Notes: generated by a model from the letters alone, not told the origin. A DNA stretch of 64,000 nt from Bacteroidales bacterium (GCA_023229525.1 JALNZC010000013.1:17286-81285), one strand, 5' to 3'; counted from the first letter of the stretch, positions 20,272 to 60,736 are shown. Program-made: numbers and translations.

Positions 20272-20280
20272 CTTTAAATA

Positions 20281-20312
20281 ATTTGAAGATTTGAGGATTT
20301 GAAAATTTGAAA
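20281..20312. repeat. 8-bp tandem array (ATTTGARR) x4
   Basis: Read as atttgaag atttgagg atttgaaa atttgaaa. Starts 9 nt upstream of the ATPase start codon. Confidence 0.9.
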
Positions 20313-20323
20313 ATTAAACTCAT

Positions 20324-20435
20324 CATTTCACCATTTCACCATCTCACCATCTCACCATCTCACCACCTCACCATCTCACCACCTCACCATCTCACCACCT
20401 CACCATCTCACCATCTCACCACCTCACCATCTACT
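20324..20435. repeat. 8-bp tandem array (CAYYTCAC) x about 14
   Basis: In-phase units are catttcac x2, then catctcac/cacctcac x11, then a degenerate unit. The array begins at the stop codon (20431-20433) of the upstream permease gene. Confidence 0.9.
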
Positions 20436-53296: not shown

Positions 53297-53331
53297 GATT
53301 TTAGATTTTAGATTTACGATTTTAGATTTAT
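53297..53331. repeat. 7-bp tandem array (GATTTWM) x5
   Basis: Read in phase as gatttta gatttta gatttac gatttta gatttat. Confidence 0.9.
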
Positions 53332-53371: not shown

Positions 53372-53483
53372 ATCCAGCATCCAGCATCCAGCATCCAGTA
53401 TCCAGCATCCTGTATCCCGCATCCTGCATCCTGCATCCCGCATCCTGTATCCAGCATCCAGCATCCGGCATCCAGCATCCTGC
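53372..53483. repeat. 7-bp tandem array (ATCCWGY) x16
   Basis: Sixteen in-phase heptamers (atccagc, atccagt, atcctgt, atcccgc, atcctgc, atccggc variants). The array ends 25 nt before the ATG at 53508. Confidence 0.95.
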
Positions 53484-53507
53484 ATCTGATAACAAACTCG
53501 AACAACA

Positions 53508-56500
53508 ATGTATAAGATCACGAAACATCCGATCCTTGAAATAGCGGAAACCGAAAAAACCATTTTTTTATTTGAAGGACGGGAAATCACAGGCGACAAA
53601 GGTTTTACCATTGCTGCTGCGCTGCACCAGGCCGGGTATCCGGTTCACAGCCATAGCCTGACCAACCGCGAGCGTAGCCTTGAATGCGGCATTGGAAAAT
53701 GCGGTGCCTGCGAGATGCTGGTCGACGGACAGATCAAACGTATCTGTATAACCCGTGTCGACGGGGTGAAGGTAGTAAGTGAGATCCCTTCTGACTATGC
53801 TCCTTCCCCGGTCAATGTGAAAAAAGATATTCCGCTGAATATTTACAAGACATCCGTGGCCATTATCGGTGCGGGTCCGGCAGGACTGGCTGCCCGTGAA
53901 GAACTGAACAAACATCGTATCCCGAATCTGGTCATTGACAATAATGATAAAATCGGCGGTCAATTTAATATGCAGACCCACCAATTTTTCTTTTTTGAGA
54001 AGAAGCAGAAATTCGGTGGGATGAGGGGATTTGATATTGCAAAAATGCTGGCCGGAGATAACCACGAAGGGATTTTCCTGAATTCTACCGTATGGGATAT
54101 CCTCGAAGGAGGACGGATTGCCGTTAAAAATATCCTCACGGACGAAATCTTTTTTGTCGACACGGAGTACCTGATTGTTTCCACCGGGGCGGTTCCTTTC
54201 ATGCCTGCATTTGAAAACGATGATTTGCCGGGCGTTTTTACTGCCGCAGTGGTTCAAAAAATGATGAACAACGAATTGACCCTTCTGGGTAAAAATGTGC
54301 TCACCGTCGGCGCAGGAAATATCGGCTACCTCACCTCGTATCAGCTTATGCAGGCAGGAGCCAGGGTCAAGGCGATCGTAGAAGCCCTGCCTAATGAAGG
54401 CGGTTTCCCGGTGCAGGCTAACCGGGTCAGACGACTTGGCATTCCCATCCTTACTTCGCATATGCTGCTGAAAGCCATACCCAATGAAAAACACGATGGT
54501 ATTATAGGTGCAGTTATTTCCGAATGCAGTGATTTTAAACCTATCCCCGGAACCGAAAAGGTGATTGATGGCATCGATGCCATTAATATCTGCACAGGTC
54601 TGGTTCAGGATGATCAGCTCTTGATTAAAGGGAATGAAATTTTCGGCCGCCGTTGCTTTGGCGCCGGAGATGCAATACGCATTGGCGAAGGTACCAGCGC
54701 CGTTTTGCGTGGCCGGCAGGCAGCCTTCGACGTCCTGCAAGAAATGGGGGAACATTTTGATTATGATGAATTCCTGTCTTTATCAAAAGAATATATTGAT
54801 TCGCAGCAACATCCCATACGCGTAATCCAGGAACCATACCAACCAAGCGCCGAACGGATGCAGGAAAAAGGTTTCGTACTGATCGACTGTCTTTACGGTT
54901 TTGCCTGCAATCCATGCGCGTTTTCCTGTCCCCACGGAGCCATAACCAAATCATCGACCAGTACCGTACCGGAAATCGACTTTGGAAAGTGCATCGGTTG
55001 TATGGATTGTGTTTTCCAATGCCCTGGATTGGCCATATTCGGATATAATCTCAAAAAGGACTGGCTCTTTTTACCCATTGAATATGAAGTTACCGAAAAA
55101 TCGGCATGCTACCTGGTCGATAACAACGGAAATCGACTGGGGGAGGGCATTGTGGAAAAAATCCTGCGTAAGCAAAATAAAACCAACATTGCCCGGGTGA
55201 AGTCACTGACCCTCCACGGTGAAGGTCTTAGCAAGGTCAGCGGGTTCATTGTAAAAGAGAATTTCCCTGATCCCATTGAGTATAAACCGTATAAACAGGA
55301 AACACGGGAATCAACCTACATTTGTCATTGCGACGATGTAACCCTGGATGAAATCCTGGAAACCATCGGAGACCGGAAATTTATTTCGGTAGACGAAGTA
55401 AAACATACCACCCGTCTTGGGATGGGCGCTTGCCGGGGAAAACGATGCATTAAACGTTTAAAATCAATCCTTTACGGTTCAGGAATTTCCATTGTTGGGG
55501 AACCGACACCCCGAGGACCTTTATCGAATCAGGTTTCGATGGGGGAACTTTATCCGCGAACTGTTCACGAAAAGGTGATCACGGGTGTGAACGGGCAAAA
55601 GCCGAAAAAGGTGAAAGTAAAATCATTGATTGCCGGTGGCGGGATCGGGGGAAGCGCTTTATTTCGTTACCTCAGCGAAGCCGGTCAGAAACCGGTACTG
55701 ATCAATTCAGGTCGCGGCGCCTCATGGCGTAACATTGCCGGCGGACGTCCAAATTTTACCCTTCCCGAACTATCAGAAATTGCGGTGCAAAATCATGAGA
55801 TCTTTAAGGATTTGCAGAAAATTCATAATATCGATTACCGGCAGATATTATATGTCACCTTTGCGCATGATGACTCAATGTACAAATCGCTGGCTGATTC
55901 CATGTCTTGGTCAAATGCACGGATGGTGGAGCCCAAAGATTTCAGGAAAGAAATTGCGCCTGGCATCAATCCGGACCTTACTACCTATCAGGCTGCATTT
56001 ATTACCCGCGATTGCTGGCAGGCAACTCCCGGCCGGGTTATCGACCTGATCCGCCGCATAGGAATCAACCGGGGAGGAAAGGTCGAAGAGGATTGTAAGC
56101 TGATCGATGTAAACCAGGTAGAAGACAAATATATTATATTGGTGCAGGATCACCGGAAACAGTTTATAGAATATGAGACAGGGATCTTTATCAATGCGTT
56201 GGGTCCTGAAGGAGAAAAATTTGCCCGGCAATTGAATATCGAAACAGGGCTTTTTCCGGTGAAACACCAGGCTTTCATCACACGCAGGTTACCCATGCTC
56301 GGAAAAGACGGGATGCCTCTTCCCATGCTTATCGATCGCCGTCGCTACAAAGGATTCACGGCAGTATATGGCCAGCAACTGGCTGAAACCGGTCAGATCA
56401 TCGGGTGTGCCTCGCCTGCCATAGAGCCGATGGAGGCAGATAAAAATATAAAAATCAACTCGGAAGATTTTGTGGAAATCGTAGCTGAGATTTTCACGAA

Positions 56501-56741
56501 TTGGATTCCTGATCTCTCTTCCGTCGGATTCCAGGCTGTGTGGGCAGGTTATTATGTGGAACCCCGTATGGTCATTGATACAGAACTTGGACTATTCCTC
56601 GGTTTACGCGGACAGGGATTCATGCTTGGTCAATACCTGGCAAAGATGTATGTCGACCAACTACTGGGAAAAACAGTGCCATCCTATTTCAACAGGCTTA
56701 AACTGAGCGGTGACGGAATGCCGGAGAAAGCGTTTAAGTAA
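53508..56741 (+). CDS. multidomain Fe-S flavoprotein: 2Fe-2S + pyridine-nucleotide-disulfide oxidoreductase + 4Fe-4S ferredoxin + BFD-like 2Fe-2S + DAO-type FAD oxidoreductase
   Basis: 1077 aa. N-terminal CGIGKCGACEMLVDG, a Rossmann motif VAIIGAGPAGLAA with a second VGAGNIGYL, CNPCAFSCP and CIGCMDCVFQCP, CHCDDVT...GMGACRGKRC, and a C-terminal DAO-like GGGIGGSALFRYL. Confidence 0.85.
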   Translation: MYKITKHPILEIAETEKTIFLFEGREITGDKGFTIAAALHQAGYPVHSHSLTNRERSLECGIGKCGACEMLVDGQIKRICITRVDGVKVVSEIPSDYAPSPVNVKKDIPLNIYKTSVAIIGAGPAGLAAREELNKHRIPNLVIDNNDKIGGQFNMQTHQFFFFEKKQKFGGMRGFDIAKMLAGDNHEGIFLNSTVWDILEGGRIAVKNILTDEIFFVDTEYLIVSTGAVPFMPAFENDDLPGVFTAAVVQKMMNNELTLLGKNVLTVGAGNIGYLTSYQLMQAGARVKAIVEALPNEGGFPVQANRVRRLGIPILTSHMLLKAIPNEKHDGIIGAVISECSDFKPIPGTEKVIDGIDAINICTGLVQDDQLLIKGNEIFGRRCFGAGDAIRIGEGTSAVLRGRQAAFDVLQEMGEHFDYDEFLSLSKEYIDSQQHPIRVIQEPYQPSAERMQEKGFVLIDCLYGFACNPCAFSCPHGAITKSSTSTVPEIDFGKCIGCMDCVFQCPGLAIFGYNLKKDWLFLPIEYEVTEKSACYLVDNNGNRLGEGIVEKILRKQNKTNIARVKSLTLHGEGLSKVSGFIVKENFPDPIEYKPYKQETRESTYICHCDDVTLDEILETIGDRKFISVDEVKHTTRLGMGACRGKRCIKRLKSILYGSGISIVGEPTPRGPLSNQVSMGELYPRTVHEKVITGVNGQKPKKVKVKSLIAGGGIGGSALFRYLSEAGQKPVLINSGRGASWRNIAGGRPNFTLPELSEIAVQNHEIFKDLQKIHNIDYRQILYVTFAHDDSMYKSLADSMSWSNARMVEPKDFRKEIAPGINPDLTTYQAAFITRDCWQATPGRVIDLIRRIGINRGGKVEEDCKLIDVNQVEDKYIILVQDHRKQFIEYETGIFINALGPEGEKFARQLNIETGLFPVKHQAFITRRLPMLGKDGMPLPMLIDRRRYKGFTAVYGQQLAETGQIIGCASPAIEPMEADKNIKINSEDFVEIVAEIFTNWIPDLSSVGFQAVWAGYYVEPRMVIDTELGLFLGLRGQGFMLGQYLAKMYVDQLLGKTVPSYFNRLKLSGDGMPEKAFK

Positions 56742-56743
56742 AA

Positions 56744-56881
56744 GATGCAGGATGCAGGATACAGGATGCAGGATTTTGGATGCTAGATGCTGGATACTGG
56801 ATGATGGATACTGGATAACGAACGGTTGTCAGAAAGGATTAACTCTATCCTGTATCCTGTATCCTGTATCCTGTATCCTCT
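56744..56881. repeat. inverted heptamer arrays: (GATRCWG) x11 - 26-nt spacer - (ATCCTGT) x5
   Basis: In-phase units run from 56744 to 56820, and the opposite-orientation array from 56847 to 56881. Together they fill the spacer between convergent stops at 56741 and 56888 and can pair as a long hairpin. Confidence 0.9.
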
Positions 56882-56887
56882 ATAGGT

Positions 56888-57799
56888 TTATCCCCTAACG
56901 AATAACGCCTTTATAATGTGTGTTGCCATTTTTGGATTTTCTTTCAACCTGCGGGTAGAATAACCAAACCACTTTTTGCCGAAAGGTACGTATACCCTCA
57001 TGATATGTCCCTTGTCAACGATTGACTTCCGCAATTCCGGGGTGACGCCATAAAGCATCTGAAATTCGCACCTCTCTTTCGGAATCCCATATTTTTCGAT
57101 AAGACGATAAGCTCCTTCAACCAATGTTTTATCGTGGGTGGCAATGCCGGGGAATATGCCCTCGCTGAACATGTATTCAAGGTCATCCAGGTAATGGGCG
57201 TTGATTTCCTGGTATTTTTTCCAGGCAATCGTTTCGGACTCCACATAGATGCCTTTGCAGAGTCTGAAATTCAGGGGAATTTCATGGGAATGAAGATCAT
57301 GAAGATCCTGCAAATCTTTCAATGTTCTTTTAAGATAAGCCTGTACAACCAGCCCCACATTTTTTGGAAATTCCCGGTGCAGTTTTCTGAACAATTCAAT
57401 TTCCCGGTCAGTACACTGTGAATCTTCCATATCGATCCTGATGAAATTATTGTGACCAGCGGTTTTCTCCACGATCTCACGAATGTTTTGATAACAGATT
57501 TCCGTATCGATCAGCAAACCGAAACTGGTTGGTTTAAGAGAATAATTGGCATCAATTTTTTCTTTCTCGATCCGGTCGATAATCTCGAGATATGCTTTTT
57601 TATTTTCTGAGGCCTCATCCAATCTGGTGATAAATTCTCCCAACAGATCAATTGTTGCCTTTATTTTCTTTTCATTTAACTCACGGCAGGCACGAATGGC
57701 ATCTTCAATGGTTTCACCGGCGATATATTTACGGGAAAAGATCCAAACCAGTTTTTCAGGCATGAAGGGAAGCAGGAGTGTGATGAATCGGTTAAACAT
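56888..57799 (-). CDS. proline dehydrogenase (monofunctional Pro_dh family)
   Basis: 303 aa with a Pro_dh TIM-barrel-type sequence (YIAGETIEDAI ... ATIDLLGEF ... LVVQAYLKRT ... ATHD...). Confidence 0.85.
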   Translation of the reverse strand: MFNRFITLLLPFMPEKLVWIFSRKYIAGETIEDAIRACRELNEKKIKATIDLLGEFITRLDEASENKKAYLEIIDRIEKEKIDANYSLKPTSFGLLIDTEICYQNIREIVEKTAGHNNFIRIDMEDSQCTDREIELFRKLHREFPKNVGLVVQAYLKRTLKDLQDLHDLHSHEIPLNFRLCKGIYVESETIAWKKYQEINAHYLDDLEYMFSEGIFPGIATHDKTLVEGAYRLIEKYGIPKERCEFQMLYGVTPELRKSIVDKGHIMRVYVPFGKKWFGYSTRRLKENPKMATHIIKALFVRG

Positions 57800-57906: not shown

Positions 57907-58437
57907 TTGAATTACGCAGGGCAATATGAAATTTTGTTCAGTGGTTTGAAGCTGGGCAGGTTTACTTTTGATTTTCAAATTGATCAAAAGTTCTTTGAAC
58001 ATTTTGATAATGCCGAAATAAAAGATGGCCGGGTCGGTGTTACTGTCACTATGAACCGGGAAGAGCGCATGATGGACCTTCATTTTGCAATCGAAGGCAC
58101 AGTTAAGGTTCCATGCGACCGATGTAATGAATTGATCGATATCGGCATCGACGGTGAGGAAAGGTTGATTATCAAGCTGGGCGACCGTTATTACGAAGAG
58201 AGTGACAACGTACAGATCATACCTGAAACGGATCAAAAAATTGACCTGGGCCCTTTTATTTATGAGTATATTTACCTGCTGATACCGTTCCGTAAAGTTC
58301 ATCCGGATGATGAATACGGAAACAGTATGTGTGACCCGGAGATAATAATGAAGTTGAAAGAGCTGAGTGAAAGGCACATCCCCGATCCGCGTTGGGAAGC
58401 GCTCAACCAGCTTAAAAATCTAAAATCTAAAATCTAA
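57907..58437 (+). CDS. yceD: YceD/DUF177-family protein, TTG start
   Basis: 176 aa with a Cys pair CDRCNE and a conserved position upstream of rpmF-plsX-fabH. The last approx. 8 codons (LKNLKSKI plus the stop) are encoded by the heptamer array. Confidence 0.75.
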   Translation: MNYAGQYEILFSGLKLGRFTFDFQIDQKFFEHFDNAEIKDGRVGVTVTMNREERMMDLHFAIEGTVKVPCDRCNELIDIGIDGEERLIIKLGDRYYEESDNVQIIPETDQKIDLGPFIYEYIYLLIPFRKVHPDDEYGNSMCDPEIIMKLKELSERHIPDPRWEALNQLKNLKSKI

Positions 58438-58448
58438 AATCGTAAATT
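58414..58448. repeat. 7-bp tandem array (TAAAATC-type) x5
   Basis: Read as aaaaatc taaaatc taaaatc taaaatc gtaaatt. This is the reverse complement of the GATTTWM family at 53297-53331. Confidence 0.9.
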
Positions 58449-60625: not shown

Positions 60626-60715
60626 ATGCCGGATGCTGGATACAGGATACAGGATGCAGGATACTGGATAACAGATTACAGAAAAATCGTAAATCGTAAA
60701 TTGTAAATCGTAAAT
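60625..60715. repeat. 13 in-phase heptamers grading from GATRCWG to CGTAAAT
   Basis: Read as gatgccg gatgctg gatacag gatacag gatgcag gatactg gataaca gattaca gaaaaat cgtaaat cgtaaat tgtaaat cgtaaat. The first unit shares its G with the fabH stop codon. Confidence 0.9.
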
Positions 60716-60736
60716 CAAACTACAATACCTCCCGTC

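Follow-up and report, generated by a model that had tools for sequence, protein, structure and literature searches.

Background

Rehm et al. (2015) described tandem heptamers with the unit GGGAATC in Xanthomonas and GGGGA(C/T)T in Nostoc, for which no function was found. These heptamers lie in sense orientation downstream of genes and in antisense orientation upstream of them, the distance to the open reading frame (ORF) is 28 nt for their 5' end and 160 nt for their 3' end, and 70-75 convergent inverted pairs occur per genome (PMC4692102). The polarity rule that is discussed below is thus already published for the heptamers of these two genera. The wider class includes the short tandemly repeated repetitive (STRR) sequences of cyanobacteria, the long simple sequence repeats (LSSRs) of Mrazek 2007 and the TAACTGA repeats of MacGregor 2015 (PMC4679880). 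Another described system is the intervening sequence (IVS) in the 23S rRNA of Coxiella burnetii, which contains the S23p ORF and a 28-bp terminal stem that RNase III cleaves, and in which tandem heptamers that vary among strains lie at the site of the cut (Warrier et al. 2016, PMC4990558). Here we analyse a stretch of 64,000 nt from a Bacteroidales bacterium (GCA_023229525.1, JALNZC010000013.1:17286-81285), called the window below, in which the spacer between two convergent genes is filled by two opposed heptamer arrays (56744-56881). In our view this 146-nt spacer is probably an ORF-less ("solo") hairpin of the GGATRCW heptamer family, and is tied to cassettes that carry a gene of the family PF05635.

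The genome, a draft assembly of 4.18 Mb in 95 contigs with 42% G+C, belongs to the Bacteroidota, and sorting domains of the type IX secretion system (T9SS) are present in it. Positions without a prefix are those of the window; sites elsewhere in this genome (G000) carry a C number. A preliminary description of the window had dealt with the local arrays, and the genome-wide family, the polarity rule and the link to PF05635 cassettes were all absent from it.

Architecture of the spacer

The spacer and its surroundings contain the following features.

56744-56820, + strand: left arm with 11 heptamers in phase, G-rich form of the GGATRCW family (sequence inspection and Tandem Repeats Finder)
56821-56846, no strand: 26-nt unique spacer between the arms (sequence inspection)
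56847-56881, + strand: right arm, four ATCCTGT and one ATCCTCT, the C-rich form on the + strand (sequence inspection and Tandem Repeats Finder)
56744-56774, + strand: 5' side of the stem (about 31 bp) in the fold of lowest energy, made up of left-arm bases paired with the right arm (RNA fold)
53508-56741, + strand: oxidoreductase gene, left flank, for a 1077-aa multidomain FAD/Fe-S protein (Pfam DAO, Pyr_redox_2, Fer2_BFD, Fer4)
56888-57799, - strand: proline dehydrogenase gene (Pfam Pro_dh), right flank, convergent with the oxidoreductase gene
53372-53486, + strand: solitary array (ATCCAGC) x16.4, C-rich form of the GGATRCW family
60638-60670, + strand: solitary array of the GGATRCW family in the G-form, (GGATACA) x4.7

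The preliminary description had the space between the convergent stop codons filled by opposed arrays, and its coordinates, the 11 units, the 26-nt spacer and the 5 units all check out. The TAA at 56739-56741 (+ strand) closes the oxidoreductase gene and the stop codon of the proline dehydrogenase gene lies at 56888-56890 (- strand), so that 146 nt separate them (56742-56887). The left arm begins 2 nt past the former and the right arm terminates 6 nt short of the latter. GATRCWG is matched exactly by seven of the eleven left-arm units, the deviating ones being GATTTTG, GATGCTA, GATGATG and GATAACG; the gene-proximal units are regular and the four closest to the centre are degenerate. Tandem Repeats Finder gives 10.4 copies with 78% matches for the left array and 5.4 copies with 96% matches for the right array, whose unit becomes GGATACA when it is read in the sense of the - strand gene. 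The 26-nt spacer has no second copy in the genome.

The two solitary arrays listed above belong to the same family. The one upstream of the oxidoreductase gene (53372-53486) has a unit that is the reverse complement of the left-arm unit, as had been noticed before, and it stops 21 nt before the start codon, on the right side of its own spacer. The other (60638-60670) adjoins the stop codon of fabH and occupies the left part of the spacer there; its end, GGATACTGGATAAC, is also that of the left arm at 56744-56820. Three arrays have exactly 16.4 copies (115 nt); their sequences differ, and the agreement in length is regarded as a coincidence.

How does the element compare with the S23p-encoding IVS of Coxiella burnetii, Leptospira and others? 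Both have terminal inverted repeats that form a long stem (28 bp in Coxiella, about 31 bp in the present spacer), and both have tandem heptamers of variable copy number in their arms. The full cassette, which is described in the next section, encodes a four-helix-bundle protein of PF05635 as the IVS does, and both have a sporadic distribution that suggests horizontal transfer. On the other hand, the present element is found between two protein-coding genes and not in helix 9, 25 or 45 of the 23S rRNA, it contains no PF05635 ORF, with only 26 nt between its arms, and the arms are much longer (11 and 5 units). Moreover, the stem of Coxiella is an RNase III substrate, and that at 56744-56881 is a predicted one.

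PF05635 cassettes and their arms

Is there a complete form of such an element? In this genome, inverted arrays enclose eight of the nine genes of PF05635, the family of the 23S-rRNA intervening-sequence protein, which is Avd-like. The left arm of the cassettes is purine-rich irrespective of the strand of the gene, and the unit is specific to each cassette. Two of the loci are referred to below by their contig labels.

C82:21159-21704: cassette with GGATGCT / AGCATCC arms, beside mutS2; its PF05635 gene is at C82:21293-21664
C19:49690-50064: PF05635 paralogue with arms of AAGGAATG

In 12 other Bacteroidota genomes, 18 of the 30 sampled PF05635 genes are enclosed likewise and 6 more have a one-sided array. 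The protein of the C82 cassette belongs to TIGR02436 and is predicted to be a four-helix bundle, with a predicted local distance difference test (pLDDT) score of 96.6. The predicted structure matches XCC0516 (PDB 2gsc), BT_0352 (2rld) and Avd (4dwl), the accessory protein of diversity-generating retroelements (DGRs). PF05635 has been described as Avd-like (PMC10053308), and the relation of the cassette protein to Avd, a four-helix bundle as well, is one of fold: the template modelling (TM) score is 0.74-0.84, while the sequence identity is only about 8-10%.

The next question is whether the arm unit follows the protein. The reciprocal best hit of the C82 protein in a phylum-level relative has 61% identity, compared with at most 42% for the remaining paralogues, and there too the arms are GGATRCT. 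Of 14 genomes positive for GGATRCW, 7 have an orthologue of the C82 protein (49-60% identity), compared with 0 of 17 genomes negative for it (hypergeometric p about 0.001), and all six orthologues with 55-60% identity have a G-form left arm and a C-form right arm of the same heptamer. A scan of one genome per species gave 34 relatives of the protein (41-68% identity; L132-L165), among others in Ignavibacteriota, Planctomycetota, Verrucomicrobiota, Chloroflexota, Omnitrophota and Desulfobacterota; the closer ones, with 50-68% identity, come from at least nine phyla. So wide a scatter indicates that the cassette is often transferred horizontally. Nearly all the relatives have heptamer arms, and as identity falls the unit changes from GGATRCT to CGATRCT and then to AGATGGT or GGTTGCT. 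Among 81 distinct cassettes, whose pairs are not phylogenetically independent, the edit distance between units is 2.1 for proteins with at least 55% identity and 3.8 for those below 45%, a difference that 0 of 1000 shuffles reached. This test of co-variation between orthologue and unit is the contribution of the present analysis; a link to PF05635 genes is not reported in the papers of Rehm 2015 and MacGregor 2015.

The spacer at 56744-56881 and the C82 cassette also have a junction in common. Both contain the 12-mer ATTAACTCYATC where the right arm meets the interior, and its pattern occurs only three times in the genome. In the spacer it reads ATTAACTCTATC at 56836-56847, made up of the right end of the 26-nt spacer and the first base of the right arm, and it matches the inner right junction at C82:21671. 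To judge from these few nucleotides, the shared motif supports descent from a cassette. An attempt to model the internal deletion by joining the cassette ends at two TTAA motifs was given up, as only the TTAACTCYATC part aligns convincingly besides the arm heptamers. With a C82-type arm repeat, the fixed order of a cassette, a site that holds complete cassettes in two congeners, and no ORF, the spacer is read as a solo hairpin.

The same site and other spacers in congeners

The proline dehydrogenase is about 75% identical among congeners. Among those with the same convergent neighbour, most have a spacer of 10-45 nt, which in some contains a small GC hairpin. In congeners G006 and G008, inverted arrays of the octamer GTGCTGAT are the arms of a complete PF05635 cassette directly past the proline dehydrogenase stop codon, and the small gene inside was confirmed by a PF05635 search. 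Congener G015 has at the same site an opposed pair built of GGTAAACN units, which is independent, lacks an ORF and folds with -50.6 kcal/mol (z = -5.3). Of the 25 species of the genus, 14 have the GTGCTGAT octamer in abundance, and this genome is without it; outside the genus, it is absent in 16 other sampled families of the order. GGATRCW, in turn, is nearly missing from the congeners and has a sporadic distribution: among 401 genomes of Bacteroidota it is found in 13, and the reversed control in none.

The presence of arrays at orthologous places was compared for 171 spacers that are syntenic between this genome and congener G012. It is correlated (odds ratio 4.4, p = 0.006), and the units differ. 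In one orthologous spacer, GGATACA x27 at C88:1105-1391 corresponds to GATGTGCT (GATGTGMT) x26 at G012 L028:16168-16588; both arrays start at the same stop codon and are alike in position, orientation and length, but they differ in unit and period. The array upstream of rpmF (L32) is positionally conserved, unlike most others. In the window it is (AAAATCT) x4.4 at 58415-58446, directly upstream of the gene, and an AAATCGT-type array of 4.6-6.6 copies is found there in at least ten congeners, despite a protein identity of only about 75%. An inverted pair (ACGATTT)n ... (AAATCGT)m at C14:16407-16535, between the start of one gene and the stop codon of the next, is likewise conserved in unit, order and position in G012 (L034), with proteins about 68% identical.

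A genome-wide repeat family with fixed polarity

Arrays were collected over the whole genome with Tandem Repeats Finder at a threshold of at least 3.5 copies. There are 438 arrays of period 7 and 168 of period 8, and at most 20 of any other period. Together they cover about 42 kb, about 1% of the genome, and occur in 412 of about 3425 intergenic regions (about 12%). Genes were called with a custom ORF and hexamer caller and then re-called with ORFs allowed to run through arrays. The genome is about 86-90% coding, and 425 of the 566 classified arrays are intergenic; in 36% of arrays the 5' end lies within 10 nt of an ORF. GGATRCN is the largest family with about 170-180 arrays, and the pattern (GGATRCW)x4 has 473 matches in the genome and 0 for the reversed control. 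The remaining families include AAGGACG, AAATCGT, ACCATCTC, AAAACTC, AAAAGTC, ACGAGGG and AAATCTTC. With tandem multicopy units far above chance, noncoding enrichment near ORF ends, and a polarity with convergent pairs, the arrays belong to the LSSR/STRR class.

The polarity is strong. For all families, the ratio of purine-rich to pyrimidine-rich units is 117:34 on the left side of the spacer and 35:122 on the right side (p = 7.5e-23, on gene calls with ORFs through arrays), and for GGATRCN alone it is 34:9 on the left and 11:43 on the right (p = 1e-8). The direction is the same in all four configurations of flanking genes. AT-rich families without G-runs and 8-nt families hold a fixed polarity of their own, and two families have the same polarity in a 752-kb sample of G012. 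Then what causes it? A background asymmetry of spacers is rejected, since array-free spacers show no left/right purine asymmetry. An artefact of the gene caller, in which masking of arrays would mimic a C-form upstream of genes, is rejected as well, for the rule became stronger with the re-called genes. Avoidance of start codons in 5' leaders fits the units GGATGCT, GAGATGGT and GAAGATTT but fails for AAATCGT, AAGGACG and AAAACTC, and is therefore not a general cause for the units inspected. Because the polarity of the family is fixed, the opposed orientation at 56744-56881 and the inverted relation to the array at 53372-53486 call for no local design; the C-rich array at 53372-53486 lies on the right side of its spacer just as the rule predicts.

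The likeness to the heptamers of Rehm 2015 is close. In both cases there are tandem 7-nt units, mostly intergenic, with hundreds of arrays per genome and a lineage-specific unit. The 5' end of the G-rich strand is nearest to an ORF whatever the orientation: here the median distance to the nearest ORF is 21 nt for the 5' end of the purine-rich strand and 82 nt for its 3' end (303 vs 115 arrays), and there 28 and 160 nt. Many arrays start at or overlap a stop codon, convergent inverted pairs can form stem-loops, and copy number and sequence vary among relatives at conserved positions. There are also differences. GGATRCW has only GG runs, which do not make a three-tetrad G-quadruplex, and so it falls outside the G3-4 subclass; AT-rich and 8-nt families behave alike here; and about a quarter of the arrays are in frame in proteins.

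The arrays in genes number 141 in 103 called genes, and 114 of the 141 are internal. The form that is pyrimidine-rich on the sense strand is commoner among them (90/141), and GGATRCN arrays with a C-rich sense strand encode heptapeptide repeats of the IQHPASS type. Three genes with in-frame heptamer arrays, annotated with Pfam, are as follows.

C65:26756-30160 (L063:456-3860), - strand: DNA polymerase III alpha (dnaE), with three arrays, one of which has 28 units and makes about 65 residues of an RDEGRGT-type repeat
C82:18468-21143 (L062:468-3143), - strand: MutS2, with six arrays including an inverted pair
C13:22841-27166 (L064:441-4766), + strand: T9SS S8 peptidase, with one array between prodomain and catalytic domain

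The MutS2 orthologues of congeners are without these insertions, and some have 7-residue repeats of their own in the same linker.

How often are arrays paired? A complementary partner of at least 10 nt in the same spacer was found for 49 of 487 arrays (about 10%), at about 25 loci, and the idea that every array hides a short complementary partner was dropped on this count. In the paired arrays the purine-rich array is on the left in 45 and on the right in 4. Along the arrays of this genome there is a gradient of degeneracy (0.69 vs 1.03 mismatches per unit, p = 3e-6). It was not reproduced in the 752-kb sample of G012, and directional growth is thus weakly indicated.

The window itself contains further arrays at 20280-20432, 53297-53329, 58415-58446 (that upstream of rpmF) and 60638-60716. 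At 20280-20432, (AATTTGAA) x4.5 stands beside (CTCACCAT) x14.2, two different families upstream of a - strand gene, and both conform to the polarity rule. At 60638-60716, (GGATACA) x4.7 is followed by (AAATCGT) x4.7 between fabH and the gene of a T9SS M14 carboxypeptidase, and at 53297-53329 (GATTTTA) x4.7 lies past a DUF3078 gene, ahead of the (ATCCAGC) x16 array. Such combinations of two unrelated families in one spacer are frequent, and their left-right order is fixed. A 16-nt motif, GGGTCGCTNCGCTCCC, has 135 matches genome-wide with at most two mismatches. It sits inside GGATRCW arrays of the G-form, as a rule at a distance of one or two units from the 5' end, and together with one heptamer it also forms tandem units of 28-29 nt. 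Example sites are given here.

C1:about 85000-85230, - strand: GGGTCGCTNCGCTCCC
C38:26589-26830: GGGTCGCTNCGCTCCC
C88:1105-1140: GGGTCGCTNCGCTCCC

Folding of the hairpin and alternative explanations

The + strand RNA of the spacer folds with -67.6 kcal/mol (z = -6.8) into a 31-bp stem with a 72-nt interior, in which the first 4.5 left units are paired with the right array. The - strand RNA folds with -53.1 kcal/mol (z = -6.0). For each strand, an equally good fold was obtained in 0 of 200 shuffles, and the long register-flexible stem of the preliminary description is borne out. A U-run, UUUUACUU, follows the stem on the - strand RNA only; none follows it on the + strand. A scan for consensus promoters and terminators gave no site in the spacer, and the sole match of Rfam 15 on the region was mir-641, which is spurious (32.6 bits vs a gathering score of 100). 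A gene for RNase III is present in the genome.

Is the hairpin a purpose-built bidirectional intrinsic terminator, with opposed arrays selected to stop transcription from both convergent genes? Such a device would agree with the strong stem on both strands and with the U-run on the - strand RNA, as well as with the small GC hairpins of relatives at this site and the separate array hairpin that evolved there in G015; in Xanthomonas, moreover, transcript starts and stops are commoner at such repeats (PMC4692102). However, a Rho-independent terminator is a compact GC-rich stem with a short loop and a U-run, while here the interior has 72 nt, the + strand is without a U-run and the terminator scan is blank. 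Among the 55 array-bearing convergent spacers, a same-family opposed pair is found in just one, which is the present spacer itself. The preliminary description had suggested that the stem could terminate transcription from both sides and had proposed that other convergent pairs be surveyed for the same arrays; neither that count nor the small share of arrays with any complementary partner in their spacer agrees with a design for convergent genes. At another locus, an array sits between the stop codon and an ordinary terminator-like GC hairpin. The mostly unpaired arrays, the inverted pair within the coding sequence of mutS2 and this array upstream of a GC hairpin argue against arrays or pairs being terminators by design, and we consider a purpose-built terminator quite unlikely. 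A more modest role is another matter. The stem is the only strong structure between these convergent genes, where relatives have small GC hairpins, so a role at the transcript 3' ends is reasonable, and the predicted hairpin could plausibly act as a bidirectional terminator or an RNase III site. As an intergenic inverted repeat between convergent genes and a member of a multicopy family, the element also recalls, besides Rho-independent terminators, the repetitive extragenic palindromic sequences and bacterial interspersed mosaic elements (REP/BIME) and the miniature inverted-repeat transposable elements (MITEs). It differs from all these in a stem built of tandem units, the wide interior and the one-sided U-run, and from REP/BIME and MITEs in a loop that is unique in the genome; a conserved flank or a target duplication was not seen. 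A MITE- or REP-like element was rejected on the unique spacer, on the loops of nine other GGATRCN pairs, which are unrelated to this loop, and on the array flanks, which have no conserved motif. The arrays at 53372-53486 and 56744-56816 could further be taken as a recombination device for inversion or deletion of the 3.2-kb oxidoreductase gene, given that their units are mutual reverse complements. Yet they share no identical run of more than 18 nt, gene order and orientation are kept in at least nine congeners, and the inverted arrangement follows from the general polarity rule. Only seven genes are flanked on both sides by the GGATRCW family in all orientations, two of them in this arrangement, and the bracketing of the gene, which the preliminary description had pointed out, is incidental. 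An inversion switch was rejected on these grounds, and a recombination device of any kind has almost no probability in our estimate.

A more general alternative is pure slippage, the published view (Mrazek 2007, as cited in PMC4679880 and PMC4692102). Ordinary LSSR/STRR arrays would grow in unconstrained DNA, the hairpin would be a by-product of polarity, and the association with PF05635 would be secondary, for example by homing of the gene into hairpins. In line with this, the arrays occupy spacers and protein linkers alike, most of them are solitary, units turn over at orthologous sites among congeners, as with the C88 array and its counterpart in G012, and this genome has the gradient of degeneracy. 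But the gradient is not reproduced in G012, and independent slippage leaves unexplained why one heptamer is found at about 170-180 sites, why GGATRCW recurs in scattered Bacteroidota genomes and why the unit tracks PF05635 identity across phyla. Slippage alone seems to us unlikely. A regulatory array based on protein or structure, be it a G-quadruplex, binding of cold-shock or S1 proteins, or phase variation of copy number acting on the neighbours, has been proposed for related heptamers (PMC4692102, PMC4679880). The GG run every 7 nt would suit it, and so would the positional conservation of some arrays, such as the one upstream of rpmF and those behind the correlation at orthologous spacers. 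Against it, the families AAAACTC, AAATCGT and AAATCTTC share the same polarity without G-runs, the genes associated with arrays are housekeeping genes of all kinds, and the arrays at 56744-56881 are downstream of both genes. Such regulation is very unlikely to be the explanation.

The solo hairpin reading can then be put as a scenario. In a full cassette, a purine-rich tandem array stands on the left, its reverse complement on the right and the PF05635 gene between them, and GGATRCW would be the cognate arm repeat of such a cassette. A cassette, or a copy of its arms, may have landed between the two convergent stop codons, the arms may have been lengthened by slippage up to both coding sequences, and the ORF would have been lost, probably by internal deletion. 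Transcripts from either gene would fold into the stem of about 31 bp. As a substrate of RNase III, as a block to transcription, or as both, the stem would set the 3' end of each of the two mRNAs and shield it, a task that in relatives would fall to the small GC hairpin at this site.

Several points weigh against this reading. The loop is unique in the genome, and its apparent homology to a cassette consists of the 12-nt motif and a weak alignment. Most arrays are solitary and more than 100 are in frame inside genes, for which decay of cassettes alone is not obviously sufficient, so some further route of spreading is needed. The abundant families AAGGACG, AAATCGT and ACCATCTC are without a cassette in this assembly, and half of the GGATRCW-positive genomes are without a C82 orthologue. 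The co-variation could stem from co-inheritance, or from targeted insertion of the gene where arrays were already in place, instead of from a protein that makes or binds arrays. The cassette pairs behind the edit-distance statistic are not phylogenetically independent, and the gene calls come from our custom caller.

A wider proposal is possible but still tentative. The PF05635 proteins may be sequence-specific partners of their flanking arrays, and transferred cassettes may be the source of lineage-specific heptamer and octamer families (STRR/LSSR) in many phyla. GGATRCW would have spread in this manner to its 170-180 or so sites, including ORF-less hairpins, dnaE and mutS2, and the order of purine-rich then pyrimidine-rich array would be the signature of the building or copying of cassettes. 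Avd is a nucleic-acid-binding partner of the reverse transcriptases of DGRs, and with an Avd-like fold in the cassette protein the spread could involve templated synthesis and not mere slippage. We hold this for less probable than the solo nature of the spacer itself.

Significance

Two puzzles have stood since about 1990. One is why lineage-specific heptamers occur by the hundreds in some genomes, as the STRR sequences, the repeats of Xanthomonas and Nostoc, and TAACTGA; the other is the purpose of the S23p IVS in rRNA. The present analysis suggests that the heptamer repeats and the S23p IVS are two faces of one type of element, with an arm repeat that is able to overrun a genome, here amounting to about 1% of the DNA and reaching essential genes. 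Both puzzles could then be approached directly by experiments on synthetic repeats and a single purified protein. The consequence for annotation is that spacers such as the one at 56744-56881, together with the 7-residue protein repeats derived from such arrays (IQHPASS and similar), should be treated as one repeat system and not as local regulatory designs.

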